Positions 33,786 through 55,113 of a stretch of DNA of 64,000 nt are shown piece by piece. Within the stretch, counting starts at the first letter, position 1, and each line of letters starts with the position of its first letter. The position numbers and the translations under genes were made by a program. Source of the DNA: Candidatus Hydrogenedentota bacterium. Lineage in GTDB: Bacteria; Hydrogenedentota; Hydrogenedentia; Hydrogenedentales; SLHB01. Below the pieces are notes generated by a model. The model ran no database searches, was not told the DNA's origin, and worked only from the letters and a program-made list of their open reading frames with translations. The stretch is taken from positions 640,001-704,000 of the forward strand of contig CAXXTH010000017.1 in NCBI GenBank assembly GCA_963668025.2. Reading direction: 5' to 3'.

Positions 33786-36353
33786 TTACTTCTTAATCGT
33801 AACCTTCTCTCCCACCTTGATGACATGCTTCTTATCCCAGGCGTTCCACTGGGTCAAATCGGCTACTTTAACTCCATACTGCTTGGCGATGCCCGAGGGC
33901 GTGTCGCCAGCGGCTACGATATGAACCGCGGAAGCGGGAGAGGCCTCTGCCTTGCTTGGTTCTGCCTTGCTTGGTTCTGCCTTGCTTGGTTCTGCCTTGC
34001 TTGGTTCTGCCTTGCTTGGTTCCGCCTTGCTTGGTTCCGCCTTGCTTGGTTCCGCCTTGCTTGGTTCCGCTGCGGGCGCTGTTTCGGAAGCGCCGCCCTG
34101 AAGGGCATATGCATCTCCTACTTTGAGCACTTTCTTGGCGTCCCAGCCATTCCACTTACAGAGGTCTTCGACGCTTACGCCATGCTTCTTCGCAATGGTC
34201 CACGCGCTTTCACCCGAGGCAACCTGGAAAGCCCCTTCTTTCTTCGATACGGGTTCCGCTTTTTCTTTCTTCTCCGGTTCTTGCGCCGCAGGCGAAGCCG
34301 CCGATTTCGGATCAGAAACGTAATACTCTTTGCCTGCTTGGATGTTCGAGGAACGGGCCAGCCCGTTCCAAGCCAAAAAGTCGGAGGTTTTGATGTTGTA
34401 TTTTTGCGCGATGCAGCCCGGAGTCTCTCCGGAAGCGACTTTGTGCATCTGGGTGGATGAAGATGAAGCGGGAGTCGATTTCTCGACGGAAGCCGTTTGT
34501 ATCTCGTCCGGTTTAGGTGTTTCGGGTGCGGCGGCAGGAGCCGCATACACCACCAGTTTATCGTTCGCCCGAATGACGGATTTATTGGTCATGTTGTTCC
34601 ATTTGAGCAACTCATCCACGGATACGCCATATTTCGCGGCAATGGTGCCGGGGAATTCGCCTGCTTTCACGACATGCAACCGCTTTTCTTGCCCGGCGGA
34701 AGCGGATTTTTTCTCTTGCGTATCGCTTGGAGGGGCGACGCGCAATTCCTGGTTCACTTGGATATTGTGATCATCCAAGCCATTCCATTGCTTCAGGTCG
34801 CCCGTGGAAATATCGTATTTATCGGCAATTTTGGAAAGGGTGTCGCCTTTTCGGACCTGATGGATATCCACGCCTTTTGCGGAAGCCAGCTCGACTTCTT
34901 CGGGGGCATCGCCATCTTTCCCCGGGATTGTGAGCGTTTTGCCTGCCGCCAGATTCTTTGACGAACGCAATTGATTGGTTTTCATCAAATCTTTGAGCGG
35001 CACACGGAACCGGGAGGCGATGCCGGCCAGCGTGTCTCCCCGGCGCACTTTGTACTTCATGGTCGATTGGGTCGAACGGCTTGTGGTGACGCTCGATTCG
35101 TCGTCAATCGAAGCCAGCGCGACGCCGCCGCGTTCTTCGGGGATTTCACTCAATGCGGTAATCAGGCGTGCATTCGCCTCTCCCGGAACCGCCAGGGCGA
35201 ATTCGCCCGAAGGGGGAGTCACGCCGCGTACGAGATCCGGGTTGAGGCTTTTCAGGGTGTCATCGGGAAGCCCGCACGCCTTTTCGAGCTTGGCGAGGGA
35301 ATACATGCCTTTGACCGGCACGCGGAGATATTGATCGGGCGGCTGGGGATTGACCTCGAAACCGTAGCGTTCTGGGCTGCTCGCCACTACGACGCTAGCC
35401 ACCAGCTTGGGGAAAAATTTTTGCGTCTCGCGCTGCATCCGGTCGGCGGCGGGGCCCTCGAGGATCTTCCACAAATCCTTCTCCCCTCCCGCCATGGCGA
35501 CGGTGCGCTCCATGCCGTATTCGCCGCAATTGTAAGCCGAAATGGCCAGCGGCCACTCGCCAAACATCTGGTATAAGTCTTTCAGATAGGTGACCGCCGC
35601 ATCGGTGGCTTTTTCCCAATTCCGGCGCTCATCCACATAATTATCGACACGCAAGCCGTAGCGGCGTCCGGTGGCGGGCATAAATTGCCACATGCCCACC
35701 GCGCCTGCGGTAGACTTTGCTTGATTCTTAAATTGGCTTTCGACCATGGCCAGCCAGACTAAGTCTTGCGGCAGACCGGCCTCGGCCAGTTTATGGCGCA
35801 CCATGGGCGCATATTTGAAGCTGCGATCAAGACCTGATTGATATCCATTCCGATAGACTTCTTGGATCTCTTCGATCTCGGCGATAATGCGTTCGTTCAG
35901 TGGAAATGGAATCGGCAGATCCCCCACCACGCCCGTGTCGGACATGGCGACATCGCTATATTCACGAGGGCGGCCTTTTTCGAGAATATAGGCCTGCTGC
36001 GTCGTGTTATCTAGTATGCGGCCGAATTCGTTACGCAGATTATAAAAAATGACGGGATCAGGATCGGCCTCGATGAGGAGCTCGAGCATCTGCTTGTAGT
36101 TGCGCAAAGCGGCTTCGGTATCCCCGGATTCCTGGGCTTTATTGCCTTCCTGGAAGGCCCGGTCGGCAGCGCGCAACAGCTCCGTGGTGGAACGAGGCTT
36201 TGCGGGTTCTAAATTGGCTGTTTTAACTTGAGGAGTTGGAAGTGGAGTGAAACGGTGTGTCTTGGCTTGCTGAGGGGTCGAGGCGCAACCGGCCACGGCG
36301 ATAATAGACCCCACGGCAAACAGACGAGTGCATAATCCGAATACGCTCTTCAC
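33786..36353 (-). CDS. Membrane-bound lytic transglycosylase (MltD-like) with six LysM domains
   Basis: Lipobox VAGC. SLT motifs MVES, AVGMWQFM, SAYNCG. Six LysM repeats (V..GD/E..S.IA.KY). Confidence 0.92.
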   Translation of the reverse strand: MKSVFGLCTRLFAVGSIIAVAGCASTPQQAKTHRFTPLPTPQVKTANLEPAKPRSTTELLRAADRAFQEGNKAQESGDTEAALRNYKQMLELLIEADPDPVIFYNLRNEFGRILDNTTQQAYILEKGRPREYSDVAMSDTGVVGDLPIPFPLNERIIAEIEEIQEVYRNGYQSGLDRSFKYAPMVRHKLAEAGLPQDLVWLAMVESQFKNQAKSTAGAVGMWQFMPATGRRYGLRVDNYVDERRNWEKATDAAVTYLKDLYQMFGEWPLAISAYNCGEYGMERTVAMAGGEKDLWKILEGPAADRMQRETQKFFPKLVASVVVASSPERYGFEVNPQPPDQYLRVPVKGMYSLAKLEKACGLPDDTLKSLNPDLVRGVTPPSGEFALAVPGEANARLITALSEIPEERGGVALASIDDESSVTTSRSTQSTMKYKVRRGDTLAGIASRFRVPLKDLMKTNQLRSSKNLAAGKTLTIPGKDGDAPEEVELASAKGVDIHQVRKGDTLSKIADKYDISTGDLKQWNGLDDHNIQVNQELRVAPPSDTQEKKSASAGQEKRLHVVKAGEFPGTIAAKYGVSVDELLKWNNMTNKSVIRANDKLVVYAAPAAAPETPKPDEIQTASVEKSTPASSSSTQMHKVASGETPGCIAQKYNIKTSDFLAWNGLARSSNIQAGKEYYVSDPKSAASPAAQEPEKKEKAEPVSKKEGAFQVASGESAWTIAKKHGVSVEDLCKWNGWDAKKVLKVGDAYALQGGASETAPAAEPSKAEPSKAEPSKAEPSKAEPSKAEPSKAEPSKAEPSKAEASPASAVHIVAAGDTPSGIAKQYGVKVADLTQWNAWDKKHVIKVGEKVTIKK
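33951..34070. repeat. 15-bp tandem repeat x8 encoding (AEPSK)8 linker
   Basis: CTTGCTTGGTTC(T/C)GC repeated eight times in frame inside the LysM protein. Confidence 0.95.
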
Positions 36354-36592: not shown

Positions 36593-37471
36593 TTACTTAG
36601 GCGCTTTCATGCGCCATATAGCAGACTTGCCTTCAGCTCCTTGCCGTTTCGTAAAATAAATGTAGTCCTCCCGGCTCCAGGAGGGTTGCATTTCATCCGC
36701 CGGGTCCGCTGTCAATTGGCGCACGCTACCGCCCGTGGCGTCCATCACGTACAAGTCTAAATTGCCTGTGCGTTTCGTGGCAAAAATAATCTGGCTGCCA
36801 TCTGGGGAAAAACTGGGATTGATGTCGTCGCCCGGGCTGGAGGTGAGCTGGGTTTGCATGCTGCCGTCGGCATTCATGATCCATATTTCATTATCTTTGG
36901 TGCGGCGCGATACGAATACAATTCTTTTGCCGTCGGGACTGAACCGAGGTTCATCCCCATCCGCCAAAATAATGCCCGGAGCCAGCGACGCATCGTCCTG
37001 GAATACGATGCGCATATCATGGCGTATCAAGTTGCGGGCCACGGCGCGGGCAAAGAGGAGGCCTTTGCCCTTGGGCGCATAGGAGGGAAACTCCTCCATG
37101 CCTTTTTGGTCTGAAAGCTGAAGGTATCCCGAACGGCCCTTGGCGCTCACCTCGTATATATCGCCGCCGCCTGTGCGTTTGGAGGAAAAGAGGATCTTCG
37201 AGTTATCCGGCGACCAACTGGGATAGCGGTCGTCTTTTGGGCTTTCCGTCACTTGATAGGTGCCGCCGGTCCGATAGTCAAAGATATAGATGTCGTGATT
37301 GCCTGTCTGGTCGCTCGCAAAAGCCAGCATATTTCCATCCGGCGAGATCATGGGGTCCACCTCGCGGTGTACGCCCGATGTCATTTGCCGGGGCTCCTGG
37401 CCCAAGGCGTGGATGGAGCACAGTAAGCCGCCTATCATAGCGGCTATAAAAACGTATGGCGCTCGGTTCAT
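36593..37471 (-). CDS. Secreted TolB-like PD40 beta-propeller protein
   Basis: Signal peptide, repeated P.[FW]SPDG..I.F.S.R.G..DIY motifs. Confidence 0.88.
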   Translation of the reverse strand: MNRAPYVFIAAMIGGLLCSIHALGQEPRQMTSGVHREVDPMISPDGNMLAFASDQTGNHDIYIFDYRTGGTYQVTESPKDDRYPSWSPDNSKILFSSKRTGGGDIYEVSAKGRSGYLQLSDQKGMEEFPSYAPKGKGLLFARAVARNLIRHDMRIVFQDDASLAPGIILADGDEPRFSPDGKRIVFVSRRTKDNEIWIMNADGSMQTQLTSSPGDDINPSFSPDGSQIIFATKRTGNLDLYVMDATGGSVRQLTADPADEMQPSWSREDYIYFTKRQGAEGKSAIWRMKAPK

Positions 37472-37514
37472 GACAGCCCTCCGATCTTCAGGCCGGATAC
37501 TTCATCAACTTAAG

Positions 37515-37543
37515 AGGGTAGCAAGCAAGCGCTTCTCTGTCAA
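37515..37543 (-). promoter_or_regulatory. Sigma70-type promoter of the TolB-like gene
   Basis: TTGACA-N17-TACCCT with an extended TG. Confidence 0.5.
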
Positions 37544-37852
37544 GCTTTCCTTTCGAGAAAAATCTTGCCGTGCGTGCGGCGCCATCTGCACGTGCGGTGT
37601 CCTCATTGCATTCACCCGCTGGATACAGAAACCGCATGGGCGTATCGAGCAAGCAGCGCAGGCTCGATGGCCGTTTTTTTGGGGGCGGTATGGCCATGCG
37701 CTGATTAGCCAAGTGGAGAACAACAAAAAGGCGGTTGATGAAACGCATGTAACGTTGCGCAACTATGCAAATTTGCAAGTCCGAATGGAACGCTAATCAG
37801 AAAAAATAATATAAATCTTTATAAAAAAAGACGTTATATAAAATATGGTTCG

Positions 37853-37868
37853 TGGCACAACATTTGCT
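37853..37868 (+). promoter_or_regulatory. Sigma54 (-24/-12) promoter 1
   Basis: TGGCAC-AACAT-TTGCT consensus match. AT-rich IHF-like tract and palindromes upstream. Confidence 0.8.
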
Positions 37869-37879
37869 TACTTACCGGT

Positions 37880-38035
37880 AGGGTAGAATAGTTGTCCCTC
37901 CCTCTCCTCGTTCTAGGAGCCAGCCCCCCTGATGGCTTCTAGGCAAGTGAGCGCAAGCTTGCTTTTTGGAGAGTTCTTGAGCCAGGCGGGGTACGCCTCG
38001 ATGTTATCGAGCGATACCCCGCCTTGGTTCTTATA
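37880..38035 (+). ncRNA. Candidate sigma54-dependent small RNA
   Basis: No ORF or RBS after promoter 1. CU-rich 5' stretch, three hairpins (C-rich loop, GCAA tetraloop, long GC-rich 3' stem). Confidence 0.55.
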
Positions 38036-38175
38036 TGGACCCGCCAATACGTAACGTTACATGTGTTGCGCAACGCTTCTGAACGTTACCTCTCATTTGA
38101 CGTCTTCTCCTACTTTCAAAAGGCTACACTCGTAAATCCTTATAAAAAAGCGTTTTACGTATCAATATGCCGGAT

Positions 38176-38191
38176 TGGCACACATCATGCT
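38176..38191 (+). promoter_or_regulatory. Sigma54 (-24/-12) promoter 2
   Basis: TGGCAC-ACATC-ATGCT with correct GG-N10-GC spacing, upstream of the thioredoxin/MMPL genes. Confidence 0.65.
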
Positions 38192-38237
38192 TTAGTTATA
38201 TTGAAAGCCGGATACCAACTCGATGTATAGGTGAAAT

Positions 38238-38558
38238 GTGTTGCTTCTTGAGGAATGGACGGAAACCATATTGGCGCGCATGTTGTGCGAGCCTCGGTTG
38301 GTAATGGTGGAATTTTTCGCCCACTGGTGCGCGCAAAGCGCGGCGCAAGAGCCGGTCATGCGCGCGCTGGCCCAGAAGTGGAGCGGGCAAAGCGTTTTCG
38401 GTCGGGTAGAGGTCGAACGCTGGCCCGGGGCGATGGAGCGCCACCATGTATCGAGCATTCCGACATTGATTATTTTTAAAAACGGGGAAGAGTTGAGCCG
38501 GTTTGTCGGCGTTCAGCCCCAAGACACGCTGGAGGCCGCATTACGGTCTTGCATGTGA
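38238..38558 (+). CDS. Thioredoxin-fold protein with an atypical WCAQS site
   Basis: VMVEFFAHWCAQS, V.SIPTLIIFKNGE...RFVG. The resolving Cys is replaced by Ser. Confidence 0.75.
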   Translation: MLLLEEWTETILARMLCEPRLVMVEFFAHWCAQSAAQEPVMRALAQKWSGQSVFGRVEVERWPGAMERHHVSSIPTLIIFKNGEELSRFVGVQPQDTLEAALRSCM

Positions 38559-38619
38559 ACCAACTGGCGGATAGGGCAGCATCGCCTTTCGGGCGAGCCA
38601 TCCAAGAAGGAGAGTGAAC

Positions 38620-41457
38620 ATGAAATTCAGCGACCGTATCGTTGAAGCGTCTGTAGACAGGCCCGTGCTAGTGACTGCGGGCATGGTGCTGCTCACACTG
38701 GCGCTGGCGCTGCTGGCGGCATTGCCATCGCTGGCCCCCCAGACATTTTCGATGCTGTATCCGCTCAAGGTCGATACGGACCCGGAGAACATGCTCAGCA
38801 AGAGCGAACCGGTGCGGATTTTCCACGAACAGATGCGCGAAGCGTTGAGCCTGTACGACATGGTGGTGCTGGGCGTCGTCAACGAGAAGGATCCGAACGG
38901 CGTGTTCACGCCGGCATCGCTGGGGCGCATTTATGAGCTGGCCCAATATGCCAAGACTTTGCGGGGCGAGGCGCTGGGCGTGAAAGATCCCGATGCGGGC
39001 GTCATAGAAGTGGATGTGATCGCCCCTTCGACCGTGGACAATATCGAGCAGGGCGGGCCGGGGGAAGTGAAATTCGAGTGGCTGATGCCACAGCCTCCAA
39101 AAACCGAGGAAGAGGCCGTGGCCGTGCGGACGAAAGCGCAGCGAGTCCCGTTTCTCGATGGCACACTGGTCTCGGAAGACGGCAAAGCCCTTTGCCTGTA
39201 TCTGCCGCTCACCTCCAAGGACCTTAGTTACAAGGTCTACCGGAAGCTGAACGCGAAGATTGACGAGATCAAGGCGCGGAACACCGTTCTTGGCGATGAG
39301 GAGCAATACTATATCACCGGCCTGCCGGTGGCGGAGGATACGTTCGGGGTCGAGATGTTCATCCAGATGGCGATCTCGGCCCCCACTGCCATGCTGGTTA
39401 TTTTTTTGCTGATGCTATATTTCTTCCGCAAGCTGGCGCTGATCATCGCGCCAATGATTTTGGCGGTGGTATCGTGCATTATCACGATGGGACTGCTGAT
39501 CGCCACGGGCAACACGATCCATATCATGAGTTCGATGATCCCGATTTTTATCATGCCCATCGCGGTGCTGGACTCGATCCATATCTTGTCGGAGTTTTTC
39601 GACCACTATCAGCGAACACGCGACCGGCGCAAGACCATCATCGAGGTCATGCGATCATTATATACGCCCATGCTGTACACCTCGCTGACTTCGATGGCGG
39701 GCTTCGCATCGCTGGCGCTGACACCCATTCCGCCGGTGCAGGTGTTTGGCCTCTATGTGGCCTTCGGCATCATGATCGCCTGGGTTTTCACCGTGACCTT
39801 CATCCCGGCGTACGTCATGTTCATCCCAGAGCGGCGGCTGCAAAACTTCGGCACCGCCCACGTGGAAGGCGAAGACACCCATGCCAAGACCTTCGTGGGG
39901 CGGCTCCTGCATGGAGCGGGGGAATTCACCTATAACCATGCCAAACTTATTATTGGCGCGAGCGCCGTGATCGCGGCCGTAGCCATCTATGGCATCAGCT
40001 TGATCCATGTCAACGACAATCCGACGAAATGGTTCCGCGCCTCGCATCCCATCCGCGTGGCTGACCGGGTATTGAACGCCCACTTCGGCGGCACATATAT
40101 GGCGTATCTGGCGCTGTTTCCTCAAGGGGAATCCGTGGAGGACATTTTAGCGAATCCGCAAAAGCCTATGGCGGATACCAAAACCACACCCGCAAAGGCG
40201 GAGCCTTCCGTGCCGCAATTGCCGGGCGGCTTAGGCGGCGCATCGGAAATGCCCGCTTTGCCGGGCGGACTCGGAGGCGCGCAGGAAAGCGCCGCACCCA
40301 CGCCTGCACCCTCGGCCACACCCGCAAAGGCGGAAATATTTAAAAATCCAGAAGTGCTCCGGTATATGAACGAGCTCCAACAGTCCATGCTGGATTCGGG
40401 GATGGTGGGCAAATCGAATTCGCTGGCGGATATCGTGAAAACGGTCCACCGGGAATTGATCGACGGCAAACCGGAATCATTCCGCGTGCCGGAGACCTCG
40501 AGCGGCGTGGCGCAATGCCTGCTGCAATATCAAAGCAGCCATCGCCCCAACGACTTGTGGCACTTCACCACGCCCGATTACCGCGTCTCGAGCATTTGGG
40601 TGCAACTCCAAAGCGGAGATAACCTGGATATGCAAAAAGTCGTGGCAGTGGTGGCAGATTATATGAAAGCGCATCCGCCTGTCTTCACCATTGATGGCCA
40701 GCAAGTAGCGCTGCGCGGTGAATGGTTCGGCTCGACTTATATCAATGTCATTTGGCAGGAGAAAATGGTCAAGGGCATGCTCACTACGTTCCTGGGCAGT
40801 TTCCTGGTCGTGCTGCTCATGATGATCATCCTGTTCCGGTCGGGCCTATGGGGGATCCTGTCCATGATACCGCTCACGATCACGATCGGGTTGATCTACA
40901 GCGTCATCGGCTTCATTGGAAAAGACTATGATATGCCGGTGGCCGTGCTGTCGTCGCTGACGCTCGGGCTTGCGGTGGATTTCGCCATTCACTTTCTTGT
41001 GCGGGCGCGCGCCCTCTACGCCGAACATGGAAGCTGGGAAGCCACGCACGCCCACGCCTTCGGCGAACCGGCCCGGGCCATCACGCGCAACATCATTGTG
41101 ATCGCCGTAGGATTCCTGCCGCTGCTCCTGGCGCCGCTGGTGCCGTATAACACCGTGGGAATTTTTCTTGCGGCGATTTTGTCGGTCTCGGGTGTAGGCA
41201 CGTTGTTGCTGTTGCCCGCCTTGGTGCGCGTATTCGAGCCCTTGCTGTTCCCGAAGAGCCGTGTAGCGGGAATCACGTGCCGCTGCGGCACATGCATGCT
41301 TACGGCGGTAGTCGCGGTGGGGACGGTTTGGGTCAACGTGGTGCAGTTTTTAACAAAAGGCGTGACCACGTTTACGATAGCCTCGATCATCGCTGTCCCC
41401 GTGCTGTTGCTGGTTTGTTTCGTGGCGGGACGCCGTTCGAGCTGCAAGACGCCATGA
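38620..41457 (+). CDS. MMPL/RND-family membrane transporter
   Basis: Two repeats of TM bundle + periplasmic domain, IAVLDSIH, TSLTSMAGF, LGLAVDFAIH. Confidence 0.9.
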   Translation: MKFSDRIVEASVDRPVLVTAGMVLLTLALALLAALPSLAPQTFSMLYPLKVDTDPENMLSKSEPVRIFHEQMREALSLYDMVVLGVVNEKDPNGVFTPASLGRIYELAQYAKTLRGEALGVKDPDAGVIEVDVIAPSTVDNIEQGGPGEVKFEWLMPQPPKTEEEAVAVRTKAQRVPFLDGTLVSEDGKALCLYLPLTSKDLSYKVYRKLNAKIDEIKARNTVLGDEEQYYITGLPVAEDTFGVEMFIQMAISAPTAMLVIFLLMLYFFRKLALIIAPMILAVVSCIITMGLLIATGNTIHIMSSMIPIFIMPIAVLDSIHILSEFFDHYQRTRDRRKTIIEVMRSLYTPMLYTSLTSMAGFASLALTPIPPVQVFGLYVAFGIMIAWVFTVTFIPAYVMFIPERRLQNFGTAHVEGEDTHAKTFVGRLLHGAGEFTYNHAKLIIGASAVIAAVAIYGISLIHVNDNPTKWFRASHPIRVADRVLNAHFGGTYMAYLALFPQGESVEDILANPQKPMADTKTTPAKAEPSVPQLPGGLGGASEMPALPGGLGGAQESAAPTPAPSATPAKAEIFKNPEVLRYMNELQQSMLDSGMVGKSNSLADIVKTVHRELIDGKPESFRVPETSSGVAQCLLQYQSSHRPNDLWHFTTPDYRVSSIWVQLQSGDNLDMQKVVAVVADYMKAHPPVFTIDGQQVALRGEWFGSTYINVIWQEKMVKGMLTTFLGSFLVVLLMMIILFRSGLWGILSMIPLTITIGLIYSVIGFIGKDYDMPVAVLSSLTLGLAVDFAIHFLVRARALYAEHGSWEATHAHAFGEPARAITRNIIVIAVGFLPLLLAPLVPYNTVGIFLAAILSVSGVGTLLLLPALVRVFEPLLFPKSRVAGITCRCGTCMLTAVVAVGTVWVNVVQFLTKGVTTFTIASIIAVPVLLLVCFVAGRRSSCKTP

Positions 41458-41614: not shown

Positions 41615-42415
41615 ATGAGGCATCTTAACTGGATCACGTGTTCAGCGGTCTTCGCCCTGCTGGGAATCACCGCCGCGGCGCAGGACGCGCCATCAGTGGA
41701 TGAGATCGTCAAGAAGACCAACCATATGGCGTATTACCAAGGCGCGGATGGCCGGGCGCAGGTGAAAATGACCATCACGGACTCGCAAGCCCGGACCCGC
41801 GAGAAGGCCTTCACTATCTTGCGCAAAAACATGGACGACAAGGAAGAAGCGCAGGATTTCTATGTGTATTTCACCGAACCGTCGGACGAACGCGGTACGG
41901 TCTTCATGGTGCATAAGTTCATGGACAAGGATGACGACCGCTGGCTGTATCTGCCCGCCCTTGATGTGGTGAAGCGCATCGCCGCTTCGGACAAGCGCAC
42001 CAGCTTCGCGGGGTCCACATTCTTTTACGAGGACGTGACGGGCCGAAACATCAACGCGGACACCCATGAACTCTTGCAGACCACGGACGTGTATTACGTC
42101 TTGAAAAACACCCCGAAAGATCCCATCACGGTGGAGTTCGACTCGTACACCATGTATATTCACAAGGAGACCTTTATACCGGTGCAGATCACGTTCGAGA
42201 AAGGCGGCGAGATTTACCGCACGGCCACGACGCTGGACGTGAAGGATATCCAGGGTCATAAAACGGTCGTTAAAGGTAAAATGGAAGACAAGAAGATGGG
42301 CACGACGACCGTGCTCGAATACCCGAGCGTCGAGTACGATGTAAACTTGCCCGCGGATATCTATACGGAACGGTATCTGCGCAACGCGCCGGTGGATCAA
42401 CTGAATCTGAAGTAG
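41615..42415 (+). CDS. LolA-like outer-membrane lipoprotein-sorting protein
   Basis: Signal peptide, F.EP.D.RGT.F, DDDRWLYLPAL..VKRIA..DKR.SF.GS.F.YED. Typical partner of MMPL genes. Confidence 0.88.
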   Translation: MRHLNWITCSAVFALLGITAAAQDAPSVDEIVKKTNHMAYYQGADGRAQVKMTITDSQARTREKAFTILRKNMDDKEEAQDFYVYFTEPSDERGTVFMVHKFMDKDDDRWLYLPALDVVKRIAASDKRTSFAGSTFFYEDVTGRNINADTHELLQTTDVYYVLKNTPKDPITVEFDSYTMYIHKETFIPVQITFEKGGEIYRTATTLDVKDIQGHKTVVKGKMEDKKMGTTTVLEYPSVEYDVNLPADIYTERYLRNAPVDQLNLK

Positions 42416-42451: not shown

Positions 42452-43747
42452 ATGCTGAATCATCTGGAATTGAAGCATGTTGGCCCCGCGACGGAAATGA
42501 CGATTGACTTCGCGCCAAGGCTTAACATCCTTACCGGAGACAACGGCCTCGGCAAGACGTTTGTTTTGGATGTCGCCTGGTGGGCGCTCACCGGTTGTTG
42601 GGCCACGCAGCCCGCGTGGCCCCAACCGGGCAAGGCCCGAGAAGCTGAAATCTCTTACGATTTTCAAACGCTGCCGGAAGCCAAGTGTCACGGCACAAGT
42701 CATTATGATATCAAGTATGAGGACTGGCGAGAGATTGGCAAAGGACCGGATAAACATGGCCTTGCGCTCTATATTCGTGCGGATGGCGGTTTCTCTGTTT
42801 GGGATCCAGCGCGGGATCGTGGGAGAGGAACGCCTTTATCCACGTACGATAGTGAGGAATTCCCCGCCACATATGATTTTACTGCGCGGGAAGTATGGGA
42901 TGGGTTGCCCGGTCCAAAAGGAATACCTGTTTGTAATGGGCTCATACGCGACTGGGTTTCATGGCAAGATAGAGATGATATCGAATTTGAAAAACTCCGC
43001 GAAGTACTTCACGTCCTTTCCTCAATTAAAGAAGAGAACCCTGAACCCGGTGAAGAGAACCTAGAACCCGGTAAGCACACACGCGTTTATGTGAACGACG
43101 CCCGAGATCATCCCACCATCAAGCTGCCATACGGCGAAATCCCTGTGGTATTCGCTTCGGCTGGCATGAAGCGCATTCTGGCGCTCGCATACCTCATTGT
43201 ATGGGCGCAAAGGGAGCATGTTAGCGCGTCCAAGCTACTAGGCGATGCCCCTGCGGAAAATGTCACCATACTGATTGATGAGGTGGAGGCGCATCTCCAT
43301 CCACAATGGCAGCGAATGATCCTGCCTGCCTTACTGAGCACCTTTACTGGCATGAAGCATCAGATCATCGCCAGCACACATGCGCCTTTGGTGATGGCTT
43401 CCGCCGAGCCCATTTTCCAAGAAAATAACGACAAGGTATTGAGCTTCGACGTTGAAGAAAATGAAGTGCGCGTGAAGGAGGTGGGGTGGAGGAGGCGTGG
43501 CGACGCCACCGCATGGCTAACGAGCGAAGTCTTTGGGCTTGAATACGCTCGTTCGCGTAAAGCAGAAGAGGTCATGGAAGAAGCATTCCAAATCATGAAG
43601 AGCGACGTGATAGATGTGGTGAAGGCGCGGCAAGTTCATGAAAAGCTATCAAATCTGCTGAGCGACATCGATCCTTTCTGGATTCGCTGGCGGTATGTGG
43701 GGGAAAAGAAGGGGTGGCTGCATGATACCGGTACATCCGAAGCCTGA
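42452..43747 (+). CDS. AAA/ABC-type ATPase (PtuA-like)
   Basis: Walker A GDNGLGKT, SAG signature, Walker B LIDEVEAHLHPQWQR, STHAP. Confidence 0.85.
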   Translation: MLNHLELKHVGPATEMTIDFAPRLNILTGDNGLGKTFVLDVAWWALTGCWATQPAWPQPGKAREAEISYDFQTLPEAKCHGTSHYDIKYEDWREIGKGPDKHGLALYIRADGGFSVWDPARDRGRGTPLSTYDSEEFPATYDFTAREVWDGLPGPKGIPVCNGLIRDWVSWQDRDDIEFEKLREVLHVLSSIKEENPEPGEENLEPGKHTRVYVNDARDHPTIKLPYGEIPVVFASAGMKRILALAYLIVWAQREHVSASKLLGDAPAENVTILIDEVEAHLHPQWQRMILPALLSTFTGMKHQIIASTHAPLVMASAEPIFQENNDKVLSFDVEENEVRVKEVGWRRRGDATAWLTSEVFGLEYARSRKAEEVMEEAFQIMKSDVIDVVKARQVHEKLSNLLSDIDPFWIRWRYVGEKKGWLHDTGTSEA

Positions 43748-44384
43748 ACCGGCGGATTTTGATGCAAAGGTGCGCCAAAAGGGCTTGGCGTGGCTCAACA
43801 AGAATGGATTTCTTGTTTCTGGACCCATTCCCGCTGGCACCAAATTGCCTTCATATTGGAGAGACTGCCTAAAAGAGCTGCATGCCGCTTATAATGGCAT
43901 TTGCGCGTATGTCTGTATCTATATCGAGCCCGTTACTGGCTCTAGAACCGTCGAGCATTTCGTAGCAAAATCTAAAGACATTGGCCTTGCATATGAATGG
44001 AGCAATTACAGACTCGCATGCGGCAAGATGAACAGCCGCAAATGTGACTTCGACGATGTTCTAGATCCTTTCCTTATTCAAGATAAGATTCAAGATAAGA
44101 CTTTCTTTCTTGATTTGGTGACGGGAGGGATCTTCTCCAATCCGGCATTGGAAGCGGAAACCAAGCAAAAGGCAGATGACACCATTAAGCGTTTGGGGCT
44201 TGATGATCCCGAATGCCGTCAAGTGAGATCCGCTTACTTCGACGATTATATCAATGGCCAAATAACCAGTGATTACCTGCGACGAAAAAATCCTTTTGTA
44301 TGGATAGAAGCATTCAGGCAGAATCTACTCAAACCGGAAGATCTAGCATATGACTACTTCGACGCTTTACAGAATATCAAGTAG
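43722..44384 (+). CDS. HNH endonuclease (PtuB-like)
   Basis: MIPV..KPEP..F start, CAY.C, VEHFVAKS...LAYEWSNYRLAC..MN.RK. Overlaps the ATPase stop. Confidence 0.82.
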   Translation: MIPVHPKPEPADFDAKVRQKGLAWLNKNGFLVSGPIPAGTKLPSYWRDCLKELHAAYNGICAYVCIYIEPVTGSRTVEHFVAKSKDIGLAYEWSNYRLACGKMNSRKCDFDDVLDPFLIQDKIQDKTFFLDLVTGGIFSNPALEAETKQKADDTIKRLGLDDPECRQVRSAYFDDYINGQITSDYLRRKNPFVWIEAFRQNLLKPEDLAYDYFDALQNIK

Positions 44385-45852
44385 CGTGATTAGTCTGTGT
44401 CTCCTACTCTTCTGCTCAACGCAGGCGGGGTTCGCAGAAGACGCGCCGCCCTTGCCGCCGGGACTCGGCGGTGGCGCGTCGGATGCCGGTCCGGCGTTGC
44501 CTGCGGGACTGGGCGATAGCGCCTCCTCGACGACACCGTCGCTCCCACCGGGCCTAGGCGGAGGCGAGACCAACGGACCTGCGTTGCCGCCTGGACTTGG
44601 CGCTGAAAGCGCCGATTCGGCGAAAGAAGCGCAAACAGCGGGACCGCAAACACTGTTCGAGCGGCTGAGGCTGCATGGATTCTGGGAGGCGCGCGGGGGC
44701 GTCCGCACGCAGGAAGACGCCGCGCAACCCGCTGACGCCATCATCGGTGAAACGCGTTTGCAGTTAAAGTCTCGCTATGATTTCGAGGCCCATGCCAACG
44801 CGCGCATCGAAGCCACCGCGGACCTGTATCTCGACGGCGTCCTCGAGGACCCCGAGGCGGACTTGCGGATGCTGCGGCTCACATGGCCCGTGTCGGACAC
44901 CGTGGACGTGCGCATCGGACGGCAAGTGCTCACGTGGGGTACGGGCGACATGCTGTTCATCAACGATTTGTTCCCGAAGGACTGGCCGTCGTTTTTCATG
45001 GGGCGCGACGCCGAATATCTCAAAGCGCCTTCGGATACGGTGCGCATCGGCTGGTATCCGGGGCCTGTAAATATCGAGTTTGTCTACACGCCGCAGTTCA
45101 CGCCGGACCGTTTCATCACGGGCGAACGGATTAGCTACTGGAATCCGCTCCTCGGGCGGCATGGCGGCCAGCACGAGCAGGTGGATTACAACGCCCCGAG
45201 CACGTGGTTCGAGGACGATGAATTCGCCCTGCGGATTTATAAGAACATCGGGGGCTATGAATTCGCGGTCTACGGATACTCTGGTTACTGGAAAAGCCCC
45301 GGCGGGCAGCGGTTGATTCCGCTCATGCAGGCGTCGTTCCCGAAATTGAACGTCTATGGGGCCAGCGTGCGCGGCACGGTGGGGCGGGGCATTGGCAACA
45401 TCGAGGTGGGTTATTACGATTCTAGGCAAGACCGCCCGGGCGGCAATCCGCTTATCAACAACAGCGAATTCCGCCTGCTGGCAGGATATGAACAGGAACT
45501 AGCGAAGGAATTCACCGGCGCGTTCCAATATTATCTGGAACATATGATGGACTATGGCGAGTACGAGCGCGCCCGGTTCTTCTTCGAGCCGAAACGCCAT
45601 CAAAACCGCCAGGTGCTCACGGTCCGTTTGACGAAGCTGCTCATGAACCAAAATCTGACGCTGTCACTATTCATGTATTACAGCCCCACAGATGGCGACG
45701 CGTATTTGCGCCCGCTCACTCAATACAAGATGAACGATCATTGGACCTTCGAGCTGGGCGGGAATGTGTTTGTGGGCAGGTTGGATACGTCCTTCTTCGG
45801 CCAATTCGAGGACAACACGAATGTGTATGCCTCGGCGCGGTATTCCTTTTGA
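44350..45852 (+). CDS. Outer-membrane beta-barrel protein with Pro/Gly-rich N-terminal repeats
   Basis: Signal peptide, four PxLPxGLG repeats, RIGRQVLTWGTGD, C-terminal ARYSF barrel signature. Confidence 0.8.
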   Translation: MTTSTLYRISSSVISLCLLLFCSTQAGFAEDAPPLPPGLGGGASDAGPALPAGLGDSASSTTPSLPPGLGGGETNGPALPPGLGAESADSAKEAQTAGPQTLFERLRLHGFWEARGGVRTQEDAAQPADAIIGETRLQLKSRYDFEAHANARIEATADLYLDGVLEDPEADLRMLRLTWPVSDTVDVRIGRQVLTWGTGDMLFINDLFPKDWPSFFMGRDAEYLKAPSDTVRIGWYPGPVNIEFVYTPQFTPDRFITGERISYWNPLLGRHGGQHEQVDYNAPSTWFEDDEFALRIYKNIGGYEFAVYGYSGYWKSPGGQRLIPLMQASFPKLNVYGASVRGTVGRGIGNIEVGYYDSRQDRPGGNPLINNSEFRLLAGYEQELAKEFTGAFQYYLEHMMDYGEYERARFFFEPKRHQNRQVLTVRLTKLLMNQNLTLSLFMYYSPTDGDAYLRPLTQYKMNDHWTFELGGNVFVGRLDTSFFGQFEDNTNVYASARYSF

Positions 45853-46204: not shown

Positions 46205-49200
46205 TTATGGCTGTTTCTCCGCTTCATGCAAACATTCATTCAGCCGCTGGGTGAGCACCTCGACATAGGGGGAGGCGAAAATCGCGGCATGGTTGCCGGG
46301 GATGGATATTTGGGTGACGCCGCCGTGTGCATAGTCGCGCCATCCGCAGGCCGTAGCTTCCATTATAGCCGCATAAGCGGGTTCGGGGGCCGTGTGCATC
46401 AGCGTGATGGAGCCGCCGTAAGGCTTTGGCTGGTAGGCGTTGTACTCGCGGGTGTTGGCCCGAAGAGTCGAGAAAACTTGGCGCGTCTCGGGTATGTCTA
46501 TCATCGACAGGCGCTCACTATTGGAGAGCGTGTCGGCCACATTCGCTTTGCGGCGCAGAATGCGGTATACGCCATCGAGCAAGGCCCAATTCAGAAAATC
46601 CCAGAATGCCATGCGATTGCCTTGGCCTTGCATACGCTTCTGTAGCACCTGTAGCATCATGTAAATCCCGTCGCGGATGTACGGTATGGAGTCGCGCGTG
46701 TAGGCGGCGGTGACGTGTAGTATGCGCCAGATTCGCCCGAGGCGTCCCAGTATGCCTCGAGGAGGCTGCATGATGTCATGCTTCAACACGGCATCAAACA
46801 GGATGAGGCTGTCCACGCGCTCGCCTTCGGCTTCGAGCTGGCGCGCCATTTCGAATGCCACGACGCCGCCATAAGACCAGCCCCCGAGAAAATACGGCCC
46901 GTGCGGCTGCACACGCCGCATCGCGGCGATGTAGTGCGTGGCCAGTTCCTCGATGCTGGATATGGATACGGGCTGGCTGCCCACGCGCGGATCTTGCAGG
47001 GCGTAGAAGGGCCTGCCCGGCTCGATATGCAAGGCCATGCCATAATAAGGAAACGCAACGCCAGTGGCGGGAGCGGCGCAGAAAAATGGGCGCTTGCCGC
47101 CTTCGGCGCGCAGGGGGACCAGCACCCCGCCTTCGACCACGGGAGCAGAATCAGGCGCATCCGGGCCGCCCGACAGTGACGCGGCGAGGCCTTCGACCGT
47201 GGGAGTCGAGAACAGCGCCTGGATGGATACTTCCATCCCCGTGGCTTCCTTGAGGCGGGACAGCAACTGTATGGCGGTGAGGGAATGCCCGCCTAACTCG
47301 AAATAATTATCATGCACGCCCACGCGCTCGACACCGAGGACTTCTTGCCATACACGCGCGATGGTTTCTTCCTCGGGCGTTCGCGGGGCCACATAGGCGC
47401 GCGTGGCGGCCAGAGGCTCATCGAGTTCGGGCAGCGCCCGCCGGTCCACTTTGCCGTTGGGCGTGAGGGGGATGCGTTCGATGGCCATGTAGCGGGCCGG
47501 AACCATGTGGTCCGGCAGGGCCGCGCGGAGATGGGCCGCCAAGTCTTGCGGCGCGGGCGCGCACCCTTCCGGTGCATAATAAGCGACAAGCTGTTTGCCG
47601 CCGCGCCCGTCGTCGCGTGCGTCCACCACGGCCTCGCGCACTTGCGGGTGGCTGGCCAGCACGGCCTCGATTTCACCTAGTTCGATGCGGTAGCCGCGCA
47701 CTTTTACTTGCGTGTCGATGCGGCCCAGGAACTCGATTTGGCCGTCGCTCCGGTATCGGACCAAGTCGCCCGTGCGGTACATGCGCGCGCCGGGCGTGTT
47801 CGAGAAGAGATCTGGCACAAAGGCTTTCGCGGTCAAGTCCGGGCGGTTCAAATAACCGCGCGCAAGGCCATATCCGGTGATGTGGAGTTCGCCCGGCACG
47901 CCGATGGGCGTGGGGCGGCCATGCGTATCGAGAATGTAGACGCGCACGTTGGACATGGGGCGTCCGATACTGGGTGCGCCATCGATGCCCGGTTCGAGAA
48001 TGCTGCCTGTCGCCATGACCGTATTTTCCGTGGGGCCATATAAATTCGCGAATTGGGATGGAAACGATTTGGGCGGATAGCGGTGGAGCGTGTCGCCGCC
48101 AGTATAGATAAACCGCATCGAAACCGAAGTGGGCCATTCCAGGCCGAGTATGCCTTCCGCGATGGAGGTCGGCAAGAAGCAACCTGTTAGCCGTTCCGAC
48201 AGGATCCAATCGCGCACGGCTTCATATGACGATAAGGAATTCAGATCCTGGACGTGCAGGCTGCCGCCCGCCGTGAGGGCCCACCACGTTTCATACGTTG
48301 CCGCATCGAATGCGGGGCCGGAGACGCAGGTCGAGCGGTCTTCAGGCGTACAGGCGAATGTCTCATGGTGCCACTGCAACAGATGCCGGAGCGGGCCGTG
48401 GTTAATCTCGACTCCCTTGGGCTGGCCCGTCGAGCCGCTGGTGTAAATGACATACGAGCGGTCCTCGGGGCCTATCGGAATATTCAGCTCCGAATCCGGC
48501 TCTTGGGCGAAGGCCGTCCATTCGGGGTCCACGGAGAACATGCGTACGCCGCTTCCCTCGAACTGGGCGGCGCATTCCGGCCCGGCCAGGAGCGCACGTG
48601 CGGCGGAATCCTCGAGCATAAAGGCGATACGGCTAGGGGGATAGGCGGGGTCGATGGCCACATAGGCCGCTCCGGCTTTCCATACCCCCAGCCACGCCAC
48701 AGGCAATTCCGGGCAGCGTTTCATACACACCGCCACGAGATCGCCGGGTTGCACGCCATGGCGGCGCAGCGTATGGGCGATCTGGTTCGCGCGGGCGTTC
48801 AGTTCGCCATAGGTGAGGCGGCGTCCGCGCCCTTCGATGGCCAGCGCCTCGGGGCGGGCCATGGCGTTGTCGCGCACCCAATCGGGCGGGCATGGCGCAT
48901 CAGGATATGTACGCTCCGTGGCGTTCCATTCGACCAGCACGCGGTGGCGTTCCGCTTCGGACAGCGTGGCAATGGTTCCCAAAGGCGCGTCTTCATTTGC
49001 GGCGATGTGTTCGAGCGCCGTGCGCCATTGTCCAAGAACGCGCTCCACTTCCGCTTCGCTGAAATAGCGGCGGTCGTATACCAGCCGGAGCAGAAGGGTT
49101 TGCCCGACGGCCACGGCGGTGAGGGGATAATTGGTGCGTTCATACATGCCGTGTTCGAGGAGCCGCAGATCGCCCATGCCATCTCGGAGGGAATCATCCA

Positions 49201-52200
49201 TGGGGTAATTCTCGAACACCAAAATACTGTCGAACAGGGATTTCGAGGCCGGGATTCCGCTCCAGCGCTGGATATGCGCCAGCGGGGCGAAATCAAACGC
49301 GCCCGATTCGATGGCGCGTTCATGCAGGGAGCGCAGCCACGCGGATGCCGGCTCGTCTTCCGGAATGGACACCCGCACGGGGATAGTGTTGATGAATAGG
49401 CCCACCATGGACTCGATGCCGGGAATTTCCGGTGGGCGGGAGGTCACGGTGGCTCCGAAAACGATATCGTCTTCATCGCTCCGGCGCGCCAGCACAAGCG
49501 CCCATGCGCCTTGGAGTATCGTATTGAGCGTGATGCGATGCCGCCGCGCCAAGGCATTCAACGATTCGCGCATTTCCGGCGGCAGCGTGGCCTGCATGTT
49601 TCCCCGCCCTGCGTCCGCACCCGCCGCGCCTGCGCGGTCCGCGCACAATGGCGTGGGATGGGTGAAACCATCCAATACGCCCCGCCAATACGATTCGGCG
49701 GCGGCGTGGTCTTGAGATTCGAGCCATGCAATATAATCGCCGTAAGGTGGAGCAGCAGAGCGCGCGCCCGCGCCGCCTTGGCGCATGGCTTCGTAATCAG
49801 CCAGCGTTTCCCGCAGCAGGACGGGCATGCTCCACCCGTCAATCAATAGATGGTGAGTGGTCCATACGAGCCGCCAGGCAGTGTCGCGCAGGTGCAGCAA
49901 GGTGAACCGGGTCAGCGGCGCGCGTTCGAGTGCAAACCCGCGTGCGCGGTCGGCCTCGATGAAGGATTCGAGGCGAGTAGCTTGTTCTATTTCGTCAACG
50001 CCGCGCCAGTCTTGCACGGTAAACTCGGGTTCGGCGCGGCGGAACACCACTTGGCGGGGTTCGCCCGCGCCTTCATACACAAAAGCCGTGCGCAGAATGG
50101 AATGGCGGGCGCAGGCGTTGCGCCAGGCTTGTTGGAATGCCGCCACATCAAGGACGCCGCTCAACAGGCCGTTCCACTGCTCGATGTACATGGCTTCCGA
50201 GGGAGCAAGAAGCGTGTGGAAGAGCATGCCTTCCTGCATGGGTGACAGGGGGTAGATATCTTCGATATCACGCGGGCCTGCCACGCCTTCAAAACGCGCG
50301 ATGAGGCGGTCGAGCTGTTCCACATCCAGGTGGGATCGAGGGAAATCGGAAGGCGTGCACCCCCCTGAAGCGGGGTCTTGGCAATGGGCGATCAAGGCGC
50401 GCAAGGCGTTCATGTAGTATTCGGCCCATTGCGCTATCGTTTCGGTGCGATGCAGGTTCTCACTATAGCTCCATTCCAATCCCAAGCGGCCATTGAGCAT
50501 CATGGCGTTAATGACGATGGCATGAGTCCGGCGGTTTCTCGGATCGTGCATCGGGCCGGCCGACTCATCCGCTAGAGACATCTGGGGCGCATCGAACTGG
50601 CCTAAGTAATTGAACGCCACATCTGGCTCGGGGGTTGAAGCGAGAGCGTCACGGTACGTGGATTCTTTACGGAGATACCGCAGCAATCCATATGGCGCGC
50701 CATGCCCTGGTATGTGGCGAAGCTGTTCTTTGATAGACTTGATGCGCTTTCCGAGGTTTGCGCCAGGCAACGTTTTCAGTAGGACAGGATACGCGGACGT
50801 GAACCAGCCCACCGTGCGCGAACAATCCGGCCCATCGGGCAAAACGTCGCGCCCATGGCCCTCGATAGTTAAGGAAACGGCCCGTGAACCTGTCCATGCG
50901 GTTAAGGTATCCGCCAACGCCGTGAGCAACAGATCATTAATCTGCGTGCGATACGCCCGTGAGATGTCCTGAAATAAAACGCGGTTCTCTTCGGGATTGA
51001 GGAAAACCAAATGCACTCGAGCCGAGGCTTCGGAATTCCCTCCCCCAGGAAAATCGAGTGGAAGGAGCGCGGCCTGTTTCCAGGAGGCATCCAGCCAATA
51101 TGCAGCGCAAGCAGCCACTGTCTCGGACTCGGCGTATTCGGCCAAGGCGTCCGCCCAACATTTATACGAGGCTGTTTTCGAAGGGAGCACAATTGCCCGG
51201 CCTTCCCGGACTTGGGCGTATGCGGATTGCAGATCCTCGATCAGGATACGCCAAGAGACGCCATCCACAACCAAGTGATGCGCCGCCAGCAGCAGCCGCG
51301 AAGAGCGTTCCGCGCCAAGGTTCATGTATAACGCCCGGAACATGGGGCCGCGTGTGATATGAAGGGTTGCTTGGAACGCGGAAGCGGCAGCCTCGATGGC
51401 GGCGGGCAGGCGTTCGGAATCCCATTCCGATAAATCGCACGTTTCCAGCAAGCCATCGAATGAAGGCTCCGCATATGACTGGACCCATCCATCCACGGAT
51501 GGCGCATACCTCAGCCGCAAGGCGTCGTGATGCTCGACCAAGGCCTGCAATGCTTTTTGCAATGCTTCCGATTCAAATCTCTCCCGAATCTCAATCAGGG
51601 GCGCTTGGTTCCAATAATGCTGTGTTTGGGCGTCCGCGCCCGGGCCTTCGAAGAACCAGCGCTGGATAGGCGTCAGCGGGACGGTTCCCGATGCGAGGCC
51701 CTGTTCCGCGGCGGGCAGCGCTTCGCGCCCGCCCATGGCCGCGGCGAGGCCCGCCACCGTCTGATGCTGAAAAAACAACTTGGGCGTGATGGCCAGCCCG
51801 GTTTGATTGGCCCGGGCCACGACCTGAATGCTCAAAATTGAATCGCCGCCCAGCTCGAAGAAGTTGTCGCGCCTTCCCACACGCTCGACGCCGAGCACTT
51901 CGCGCCAGATGCCCGCGAGACGCTCCTCGGCGGCATTGCGCGGGGCTTCGTAGGCATCGGATTCGCGTGCGTCATAATCGGGGGCAGGCAGCGCGCGGCG
52001 GTCAATCTTGCCGCTTGCCATTAGCGGCATGGCGTCGAGAAAGACGAAGTGCGCGGGAATCATATACGTGGGCAGGCTCGATTCGAGAAACGCACGCAAA
52101 ACCAGCACATCGAGCGGCGCGCCCTTTGATACGGCATACGCCACGAGACGCTTGCCGCCGGATGCGTCCTCGAGCGCCACGACGGCGGCTTCGCGCACGT

Positions 52201-55012: not shown

Positions 55013-55113
55013 TGTAAACTTCCTTGCCTGCCCCAGATGAACCAGAGCCAACTGCCGATATATTGGAAACCGCGAATGGATGCCAATAAACTTATCGCAG
55101 TATAGCTGCAATT

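Follow-up and report, generated by a model that had tools for sequence, protein, structure and literature searches.

Qrr1-5 of Vibrio (RF00378) are trans-acting small RNAs (sRNAs) that depend on sigma54 and LuxO. GlmY (sigma54/GlrR) and CrcZ (sigma54/CbrB) are also driven by sigma54 and act by titrating proteins, a mode of action shared by the CsrB family. Other sRNAs derive from the 3′UTR of an mRNA, as CpxQ does from cpxP. In the Firmicutes, RsaE/RoxS employs unpaired C-rich motifs that pair with G-rich ribosome-binding sites and requires no chaperone. The same chaperone-free pairing of C-rich motifs with G-rich ribosome-binding sites is reported for 6C of Actinobacteria (PMC6486639) and sX13 of Xanthomonas (PMC3771888).

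A 64,000-nucleotide stretch of a Hydrogenedentota genome (hereafter, the window) harbors an undescribed structured RNA gene of ~155 nt. The gene is real and conserved, and its role is most likely that of a small regulatory RNA. It resembles the Qrr genes in being free-standing, with a −24/−12 promoter and an activator-like site ~100 bp upstream, and in specifying a multi-hairpin RNA of ~100–150 nt with a conserved single-stranded candidate seed. However, the RNA is predicted to form a three-way junction and a long hairpin, has no Rfam match, and belongs to another phylum; in addition, no Hfq was found in a search of the genome (93.75% complete), and sigma54 control is absent from the RNA's own relatives. 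With GlmY and CrcZ, it shares a sigma54 promoter and an upstream activator site before a noncoding RNA, but it lacks repeated protein-binding motifs and again matches no Rfam family. The likeness to RsaE/RoxS, 6C, and sX13 lies in a predicted-unpaired run of five cytosines (C5) in an apical loop, a CU tract, and the apparent lack of Hfq, while the fold is different and a Shine-Dalgarno (SD)-like GGAGRG within the RNA pairs with half of the CU tract. The parallel with CpxQ is found in a related genus (g6), in which the RNA follows the stop codon of an inner-membrane protein gene by 15–33 nt and would come from the 3′ end of its mRNA; in contrast, it is free-standing here and in a third genus (g5).

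Architecture and Predicted Fold

All sequence elements listed in the original prediction are present at 37853–38035 on the forward strand. The parts of the RNA, all on the + strand, are the following:

37879–38036, +: predicted primary transcript of ~155 nt, both ends being predictions
37894–38033, +: core kept across genera, from homologue comparison
37894–37909, +: CU-rich stretch GTCCCTCCCTCTCCTC
37896–37907, +: invariant tract CCCTCCCTCTCC, the candidate seed, the same in 7/7 homologues
37902–37907, +: 5′ strand of P1, CUCUCC, whose partner is 37968–37973
37912–37943, +: P2 hairpin, TCTAGGAGCCA / loop GCCCCCCTGA / TGGCTTCTAGG
37923–37932, +: P2 loop GCCCCCCUGA
37945–37964, +: P3 hairpin, AAGTGAGC-GCAA-GCTTGCTT, with a GCAA loop
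37968–37973, +: 3′ strand of P1, GGAGAG (GGAGGG in genus g6), followed by a conserved UU
37979–38030, +: P4, a long terminator-like hairpin with a GC-rich stem, followed by TTGGTTCTTATAT

In the predicted fold, pairing of CUCUCC with GGAGAG (P1) closes a three-way junction, a UUCUU linker joins P3 to P4, and UUAUAU lies 3′ of P4. P2 and P3 are the hairpins with a C-rich and a GCAA loop that had been anticipated at this locus, and the long closing stem is recovered as P4. An alternative contact is available in the predicted transcript, in which the leader AGGG (37880–37883) is able to pair with CCCU (37896–37899). The minimum free energy of 37880–38035 is −74.6 kcal/mol, compared with −49.8 ± 4.1 kcal/mol for 200 dinucleotide shuffles (z −6.12), none of which is as stable. 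Behind the P4 stem (GGCGGGG…CCCCGCC), the sequence reads TTGGTTCT, where five of eight positions are T by eye, and the tails in g5 and g6 are weaker; a terminator scan of 37300–38700 called no canonical terminator.

The RNA had been proposed to be undescribed, which agrees with the Rfam 15 search: no family, including Qrr, GlmY/GlmZ, RsaE, 6C, sX13, and CrcZ, matches the window at the gathering threshold. A permissive scan of 37600–38300 returned two chance-level matches far below gathering (E 2.4 and 4.2), and nothing was found at the RNA position in a scan of four relatives' loci. A literature search found no paper joining the phylum name with sRNA terms. The proposal that the ~155 nt are free of open reading frames (ORFs) holds for ORFs of at least 45 aa but not for mechanically called ORFs of 40–44 aa, which overlap the region. 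In the g6 homologues, no start codon was read by eye 3′ of GGAGRG, and a small-ORF reading of the RNA was discarded, as the conserved positions are without a start codon.

Homologues and Covariation

At the DNA level, the element matched none of 40 relatives, and homologues were therefore sought via synteny and a covariance model. Orthologues of the downstream MMPL-family gene led to an element in g6 that shares both the 12-mer (CCCTCCCTCTCC) and the overall layout. A covariance model (R1) built from four sequences finds full-length matches in 7 of 54 genomes of the family and 7 of 135 genomes of the phylum, corresponding to three of 66 genera and one family. The scores are 88 bits for the element in the window, 105–179 bits for five of six g6 genomes, and 52 bits (E 1.9e-8) for the single g5 genome. 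These searches score just the top candidates per genome under strict filters, so that weak relatives may be missed. All seven sequences share the invariant CCCUCCCUCUCC tract, half of which pairs with the conserved GGAGRG in P1, as well as P2 with its C5 loop, P3, and P4. The 12-nt CU tract is identical in all seven, and the P2–P4 stems have fully drifted between genera. The element is single-copy in its own genome, and folding energies prefer the + strand in five of the seven homologues.

Further candidates were drawn by sequence patterns. A loose pattern applied to genome contigs yielded at least 116 stretches, nearly all of them chance occurrences; among the 100 of these 116 loci that were scored with R1 (L033–L132), three are strong matches, with the same scores as three of the g6 matches. 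A tighter metagenome pattern yielded 16 loci, among which the sole clear homologue is L157 at 52.1 bits, the score of the g5 copy; L164 reaches 19 bits. L167 (22.9 bits) was rejected as a tRNA 3′ end by eye, and the remaining motif-bearing metagenome loci look like tRNA ends or G/C-rich repeats.

Members of another genus, g4, carry a different 151-nt element directly behind a ygaP-like gene. It occupies the equivalent place, starts with CAGGGTTCCCTCCCT, has 97% mean column identity over six species, and contains two hairpins that show a few compensatory changes. No significant similarity to the RNA was found (5.5 bits and E 2.8 with R1; local alignment z ≤1), so that this element may represent either a further, unknown RNA family or a relative that has diverged strongly. 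Its copies are located as follows:

L192:1747-1897(+): 151-nt element of g4
L193:1747-1897(+): 151-nt element of g4
L196:1308-1458(-): 151-nt element of g4
L197:1747-1897(+): 151-nt element of g4
L198:1299-1449(-): 151-nt element of g4
L202:877-1027(+): 151-nt element of g4

Each of the seven RNA sequences, when folded alone between the invariant anchors, gives the same P2–P3 pair and a long P4, and in four homologues the fold has z scores of −4.8 to −6.7, none of the 150 shuffles made for each sequence reaching its stability. Compensatory change was quantified in a seven-sequence, three-genus alignment (A4) that was fitted to the model and in which the P1 register was set to CUCUCC/GGAGRG. 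Here, 91.9% of the cells form a standard pair versus 78.3 ± 1.3% in shuffled alignments, and 22 of 43 pairs are changed on both sides versus 7.9 ± 2.0; none of 500 shuffles reaches either observed value, in tests that are inflated by the relatedness of the few lineages and by the fitting of the alignment to the model. Sliding the 3′ partners by 1–3 columns as a control leaves 2–6 pairs with two-sided change and 38–49% of cells paired. Homologues with covariation, which had been named as a check on the prediction, thus exist, and in the seven sequences the helices appear to be kept through compensatory changes, as in a conserved structured RNA. A manual alignment made from the individual folds is canonical by construction and hence serves for illustration.

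P1 stands apart from the other helices. All of its cells are paired in the seven sequences, yet it has no covariation support because five of its six pairs never vary. In the original P1 register of R1, CCCUCC/GGAGGG, the sequences of the window and of g5 contain a C-A mismatch. Thermodynamically, this register is preferred in g6, whereas CUCUCC/GGAGAG is preferred in the window. The 12-nt tract consists of two near-repeats, and either half can pair.

Constancy is also seen over a shorter evolutionary distance. A wastewater-metagenome contig (X5) that is ~92% identical spans 37600–38700 with 87 differences in 1101 positions and one gap. Among the differences listed (40 of 90, apparently in positional order), 39 fall within 37635–37851 (217 nt, ~18%), none at 37852–38002, a span that runs from the promoter through the RNA as far as the tip of P4, and one within the RNA at 38003, in the apical loop of P4. 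The activator-like site at 37747–37763 is untouched and is flanked by changes at 37746 and 37764. In a near-identical strain (X4), the sole differences lie at 37674–37704.

Predicted Sigma54 Promoter and Candidate Activator Site

The RNA is preceded by one promoter module and followed by another. Strand is given for the promoters:

37747–37763: activator-like site ATGTAACGTTGCGCAAC, which holds the palindrome GTTGCGCAAC at 37754–37763
37812–37828: A/T tract TAAATCTTTATAAAAAA, downstream of the activator-like site and ahead of the promoter
37853–37868, +: sigma54 (−24/−12) promoter TGGCACAACATTTGCT, an exact match to TGGCAC-N5-TTGCT
38065–38074: second copy of the palindrome GTTGCGCAAC
38133–38149: second A/T tract TAAATCCTTATAAAAAA
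38176–38191, +: second sigma54 promoter, TGGCAC-N5-ATGCT, for the downstream operon, 323 nt 3′ of the first

The consensus sigma54 promoter of the original prediction is exact, although the motif by itself is not beyond chance. The window holds three matches with at most one mismatch where 2.67 would be expected, and at least as many occur in 50 of 100 shuffles; genome-wide, there are 16 strict matches versus ~12 expected from base composition by our own arithmetic. The promoter is judged credible because of its context, namely, the palindrome, the twin module, the occurrence of the palindrome in other genera, and the constancy of the region in the close relative X5. The GG/GC spacing predicts a transcription start at ~37879, ~11 nt 3′ of the promoter.

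The two modules are collinear, sharing GTTGCGCAAC (37754 and 38065), TAAATCYTTATAAAAAA (37812 and 38133), AATATG, TGGCACA, and TGCTT, with 77 of 162 columns identical when one is aligned with the other. The palindrome lies 99 nt upstream of the first promoter and 111 nt upstream of the second, both distances falling in the range of ~80–150 bp expected for a sigma54 activator site. The decamer GTTGCGCAAC has seven sites in the 6.1-Mb genome, two of them in this locus. The pattern TAAATC.TTATAAAAAA occurs nowhere in the genome but in this locus, where its two sites precede the promoters by 41 and 43 nt. The A/T tract at 37812–37828 may be a DNA-bending site that is bound by a protein. In four g4 genomes, the palindrome CGTTGCGCAACG is found 112–113 nt upstream of the sigma54 promoter of thioredoxin/MMPL genes; across these and the present genome, the distance from palindrome to sigma54 promoter is 98–113 nt. 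The same palindrome precedes the ygaP-like promoter in one g4 genome, and variants occur in g8 and g13. Its recurrence ~100–113 nt upstream of ygaP/thioredoxin/MMPL sigma54 promoters was noted at L019, L020, L023, L015, L009, and L004.

The machinery for sigma54-dependent transcription is encoded in the genome, which contains one Sigma54_DBD match (rpoN; E 7.5e-64) and 16 full-length Sigma54_activat matches (E 6.5e-76 to 7.8e-60). In g4, a PAS-AAA+-HTH_8 activator gene, L184:350-1825(-), adjoins the cluster. Its orthologue here, G000:C10:9862-11307(-), has the same domains and is 63% identical, compared with 43% for the next best. The distribution of CGTTGCGCAACG suggests a site to which a single, conserved PAS-domain activator binds.

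Sigma54 control is not family-wide but specific to the lineage of the present genome, since the relatives have extended −10 sigma70-type promoters or a 3′UTR location of the RNA. A sigma70 promoter in the leader (GGGTAGAAT, 37881–37889) was considered and discarded, as it has no TG and a −35-like hexamer at a spacing of 14–15 nt by eye. The motif GGTAGAATA is common to the present genome (GGGTAGAATAG, 37881–37889) and g5 (TGGTAGAATAT, L155), in both cases just 5′ of the RNA core. In g5, it has the form of an extended −10 promoter; here, it falls within the sigma54 transcript as predicted and may be left over from an earlier promoter.

Genomic Context

The genes of the operon downstream of the RNA are the following:

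38238–38558, +: thioredoxin-family gene (PF00085, E 1.2e-17)
38614–41457, +: MMPL-family (RND-type) transporter gene (PF03176, E 6.4e-23)
41615–42415, +: LolA-like lipoprotein-sorting protein gene (PF17131, E 2.1e-50)

The MMPL orthologues in relatives are 64–69% identical. Upstream of the RNA, there is no same-strand ORF, the upstream gene being on the other strand; the opposite-strand genes there encode a LysM-rich lytic transglycosylase (33786–36353, −) and a PD40 beta-propeller protein (36593–37471, −). Farther downstream in the window, an AAA_15/AAA_21 ATPase gene (42452–43747) is followed by overlapping ORFs at 43695–44384 and 44350–45852 without a Pfam match, and the whole (42452–45852) could be a defense-type module; a 2968-aa ORF occupies 46205–55111 (−). 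Elsewhere in the genome, an IS-like repeat that includes AGAGGGAGG and the beginning of a ~149-aa ORF is present in at least seven identical copies (e.g., C6:116171, C8:16594, C10:91163, C10:251563, C11:159540, C14:100727, and C18:8262 of G000). A second repeat, with GAGGGAGGG, has four copies.

The setting of the RNA varies among its relatives. In all five RNA-bearing g6 genomes, it starts 15–33 nt after the stop codon of a ygaP-like gene, as would a 3′UTR-derived sRNA, an arrangement that is not present in the window. This gene encodes a small membrane protein (YgaP-like_TM, PF11127) and stands behind an extended −10-type TGCTATAAT; 3′ of the RNA, a sigma54 promoter is followed by an MMPL gene or an efflux adaptor. 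In g5, the RNA is free-standing behind an extended −10-like TGGTAGAAT, and the ygaP-like and MMPL genes are on another contig. The present genome has its own ygaP-like gene at G000:C3:21408-21629, with the next gene directly behind it and without the RNA. Overall, ygaP-like genes occur in 54 of the 135 phylum genomes. Among 22 ygaP-like loci beyond the known RNA holders, the four in g4 have a CU-rich element immediately behind the ygaP-like gene, another 15 have just the next gene or intergenic DNA, and three are unreadable. As the downstream genes differ between genera, the RNA is not bound to one downstream gene.

The position of the RNA, on the same strand as the thioredoxin operon and 200 nt away, raises the question of whether it acts in cis, a caveat that the original prediction had itself entered in the form of a mere 5′UTR. 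In such a scheme, the sequence at 37853 would be a second promoter of the thioredoxin–MMPL operon and the RNA a long 5′UTR serving as attenuator, stabilizer, or sensor, with P4 as a conditional terminator and the AGGG/CCCU and CUCUCC/GGAGAG alternatives as the switch. It would draw on the activator-like site shared by both promoters, which would then be co-induced, on the lack of a called canonical U-tract terminator, on the alternative pairings of the CU tract, and on the occurrence in g6 and g4 of an RNA element just upstream of MMPL or thioredoxin genes. A cis-acting leader is nevertheless unlikely. Between the RNA and the operon stands an entire promoter module, activator site included, and a sigma54 promoter again intervenes between RNA and downstream gene in g6, where the copies stand behind a sigma70-type ygaP-like unit. 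Moreover, the class of the downstream gene is not constant, as it would be for a leader or riboswitch: the genes behind the homologues are unrelated, encoding an efflux adaptor in the case of G050 and G051 and a glycine-zipper-like lipoprotein in g5, and GGAGRG has no start codon behind it.

Candidate Seeds, Targets, and Proposed Mechanism

The best reading of the element, and as a prediction a plausible one, is trans-acting repression via C-rich seeds. Invariant unpaired pyrimidine motifs, drifted helices, a free-standing unit, and the apparent absence of Hfq together make a base-pairing sRNA with C-rich seeds the best fit. With respect to the seed expected of such an RNA, the CU tract is invariant in 7/7 sequences and is predicted to be accessible. 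The single-stranded, CU-rich character originally ascribed to it applies to six of its nucleotides, which are predicted to be unpaired in all seven, but not to CUCUCC, which pairs with GGAGAG. The availability of the C-rich seeds is likewise divided: the C5 run of the P2 loop has an unpaired probability of 0.81–0.99 in 7/7 sequences, whereas half of the CU tract is held in P1.

Tentatively, then, the RNA may be a free-standing, ~155-nt, sigma54-driven regulator that blocks translation by pairing of its C-rich seeds with SD regions. The mechanism that we infer for it, from transcription and RNA ends to activator identity, action in trans, and targets, would run as follows. Sigma54 RNA polymerase would start transcription of the RNA in this genome upon binding of a PAS-domain enhancer-binding protein, for which G000:C10:9862-11307(-) is the candidate gene, to CGTTGCGCAACG ~100 bp upstream. 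Since the same activator site precedes the thioredoxin–MMPL–LolA-like operon, RNA and operon would be co-induced. The RNA would fold into the three-way junction (P1–P3) followed by the terminator-like hairpin P4, exposing two invariant pyrimidine motifs, namely, six nucleotides of CCCUCCCUCUCC and the C5 run in the P2 loop. These motifs would pair with G-rich SD regions of target mRNAs, and the pairing would block translation initiation without Hfq, in the manner of RsaE/RoxS, 6C, and sX13.

Target searches gave no preferred partner. Complements of CU-tract 11-mers are no commoner than those of a reversed control in five genomes; they precede unrelated genes, and no target gene is common to the five, so that the target prediction that had been proposed yielded neither enrichment nor a shared target. 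When 8151 candidate start regions of the genome were scored for pairing with the CU tract, the thioredoxin gene ranked at the 97th percentile, the MMPL gene at the 38th, the LolA-like gene at the 78th, and the flagellin gene (at 29754, SD AAGGAGGA) at the 45th, and the suggested link to flagellin ribosome-binding sites was accordingly not borne out. The top-ranking start regions in this computation were G000:C17:1473157, C23:172897, C17:457869(-), and C3:21667, which are predicted candidates. The number of start regions that match an anti-SD-like seed is very large, and such a seed hence offers little specificity. For the C-rich loop seed, the start of the opposite-strand gene at 36593–37471 (SD GGAGGG) is at the 3.5th percentile. 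Outside the window, a 14-nt perfect complement of the CU tract (GAGGAGAGGGAGGG) lies at G000:C17:715876-715889 (+). This intergenic site, which may be due to chance, is ~40 nt after a histidine-phosphatase-like ORF and has no start codon nearby; a strict sigma54 promoter match is found ~700 nt beyond it.

The same invariance could reflect recognition by a protein. The pyrimidine motifs and the SD/anti-SD-like helix would then be bound by, for instance, a C/U-specific RNA-binding protein, an RNase, or a ribosome-associated factor, and the RNA would act by titration, as the sigma54-driven GlmY and CrcZ do. That the CU tract, the C5 loop, and GGAGRGUU are strictly invariant in genera whose helices have drifted would be in keeping with such a decoy, as would the lack of target enrichment in the searches above. 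It is quite unlikely, however, as no candidate protein partner and no conserved RNA-binding neighbor gene were seen, and each motif is present once, whereas sponges typically carry repeated sites. The genome encodes CsrA, yet the GGA motif of the RNA lies within helices rather than loops.

A more elaborate version of base pairing, in which the RNA is an anti-SD mimic half masked by its own SD-like strand, is very unlikely as a whole. Here, the element would have moved between the 3′UTR of a ygaP-like gene and a free-standing gene, capturing in this lineage the enhancer/sigma54 module of the neighboring envelope operon, and, when induced by the PAS activator, it would lower the translation of a broad set of mRNAs whose ribosome-binding sites are strong and G-rich, as part of the response to envelope or redox stress. 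Most improbable is a functionless relic, in which a 3′UTR element of the ygaP-like gene (a terminator, stabilizer, or RNase barrier) was stranded here after loss or movement of the ORF, as the RNA's place behind the ygaP-like stop in g6 and the RNA-less ygaP-like gene of the present genome might suggest, since the RNA here is equipped with its own, complete promoter module, shows no change over 151 nt in X5 among the differences listed versus ~18% just upstream, and has a second free-standing copy in g5 behind TGGTAGAAT. Furthermore, neither the three-way junction nor the invariance of the 12-nt tract would be required in a plain terminator.

Significance

Trans-acting repression via C-rich seeds would introduce no new principle, as sigma54-driven sRNAs and sRNAs with C-rich seeds are both already known. 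Hydrogenedentota, however, are known almost solely from metagenomes, and the RNA would be their first candidate regulatory RNA family. It would also come with a defined regulon, made up of the RNA and the thioredoxin–MMPL–LolA-like operon together with a candidate PAS activator and the one palindromic site through which it would act. Finally, the occurrence of the same RNA as a 3′UTR element and as an independent gene, with different sigma factors, bears on the origin of sRNA genes.
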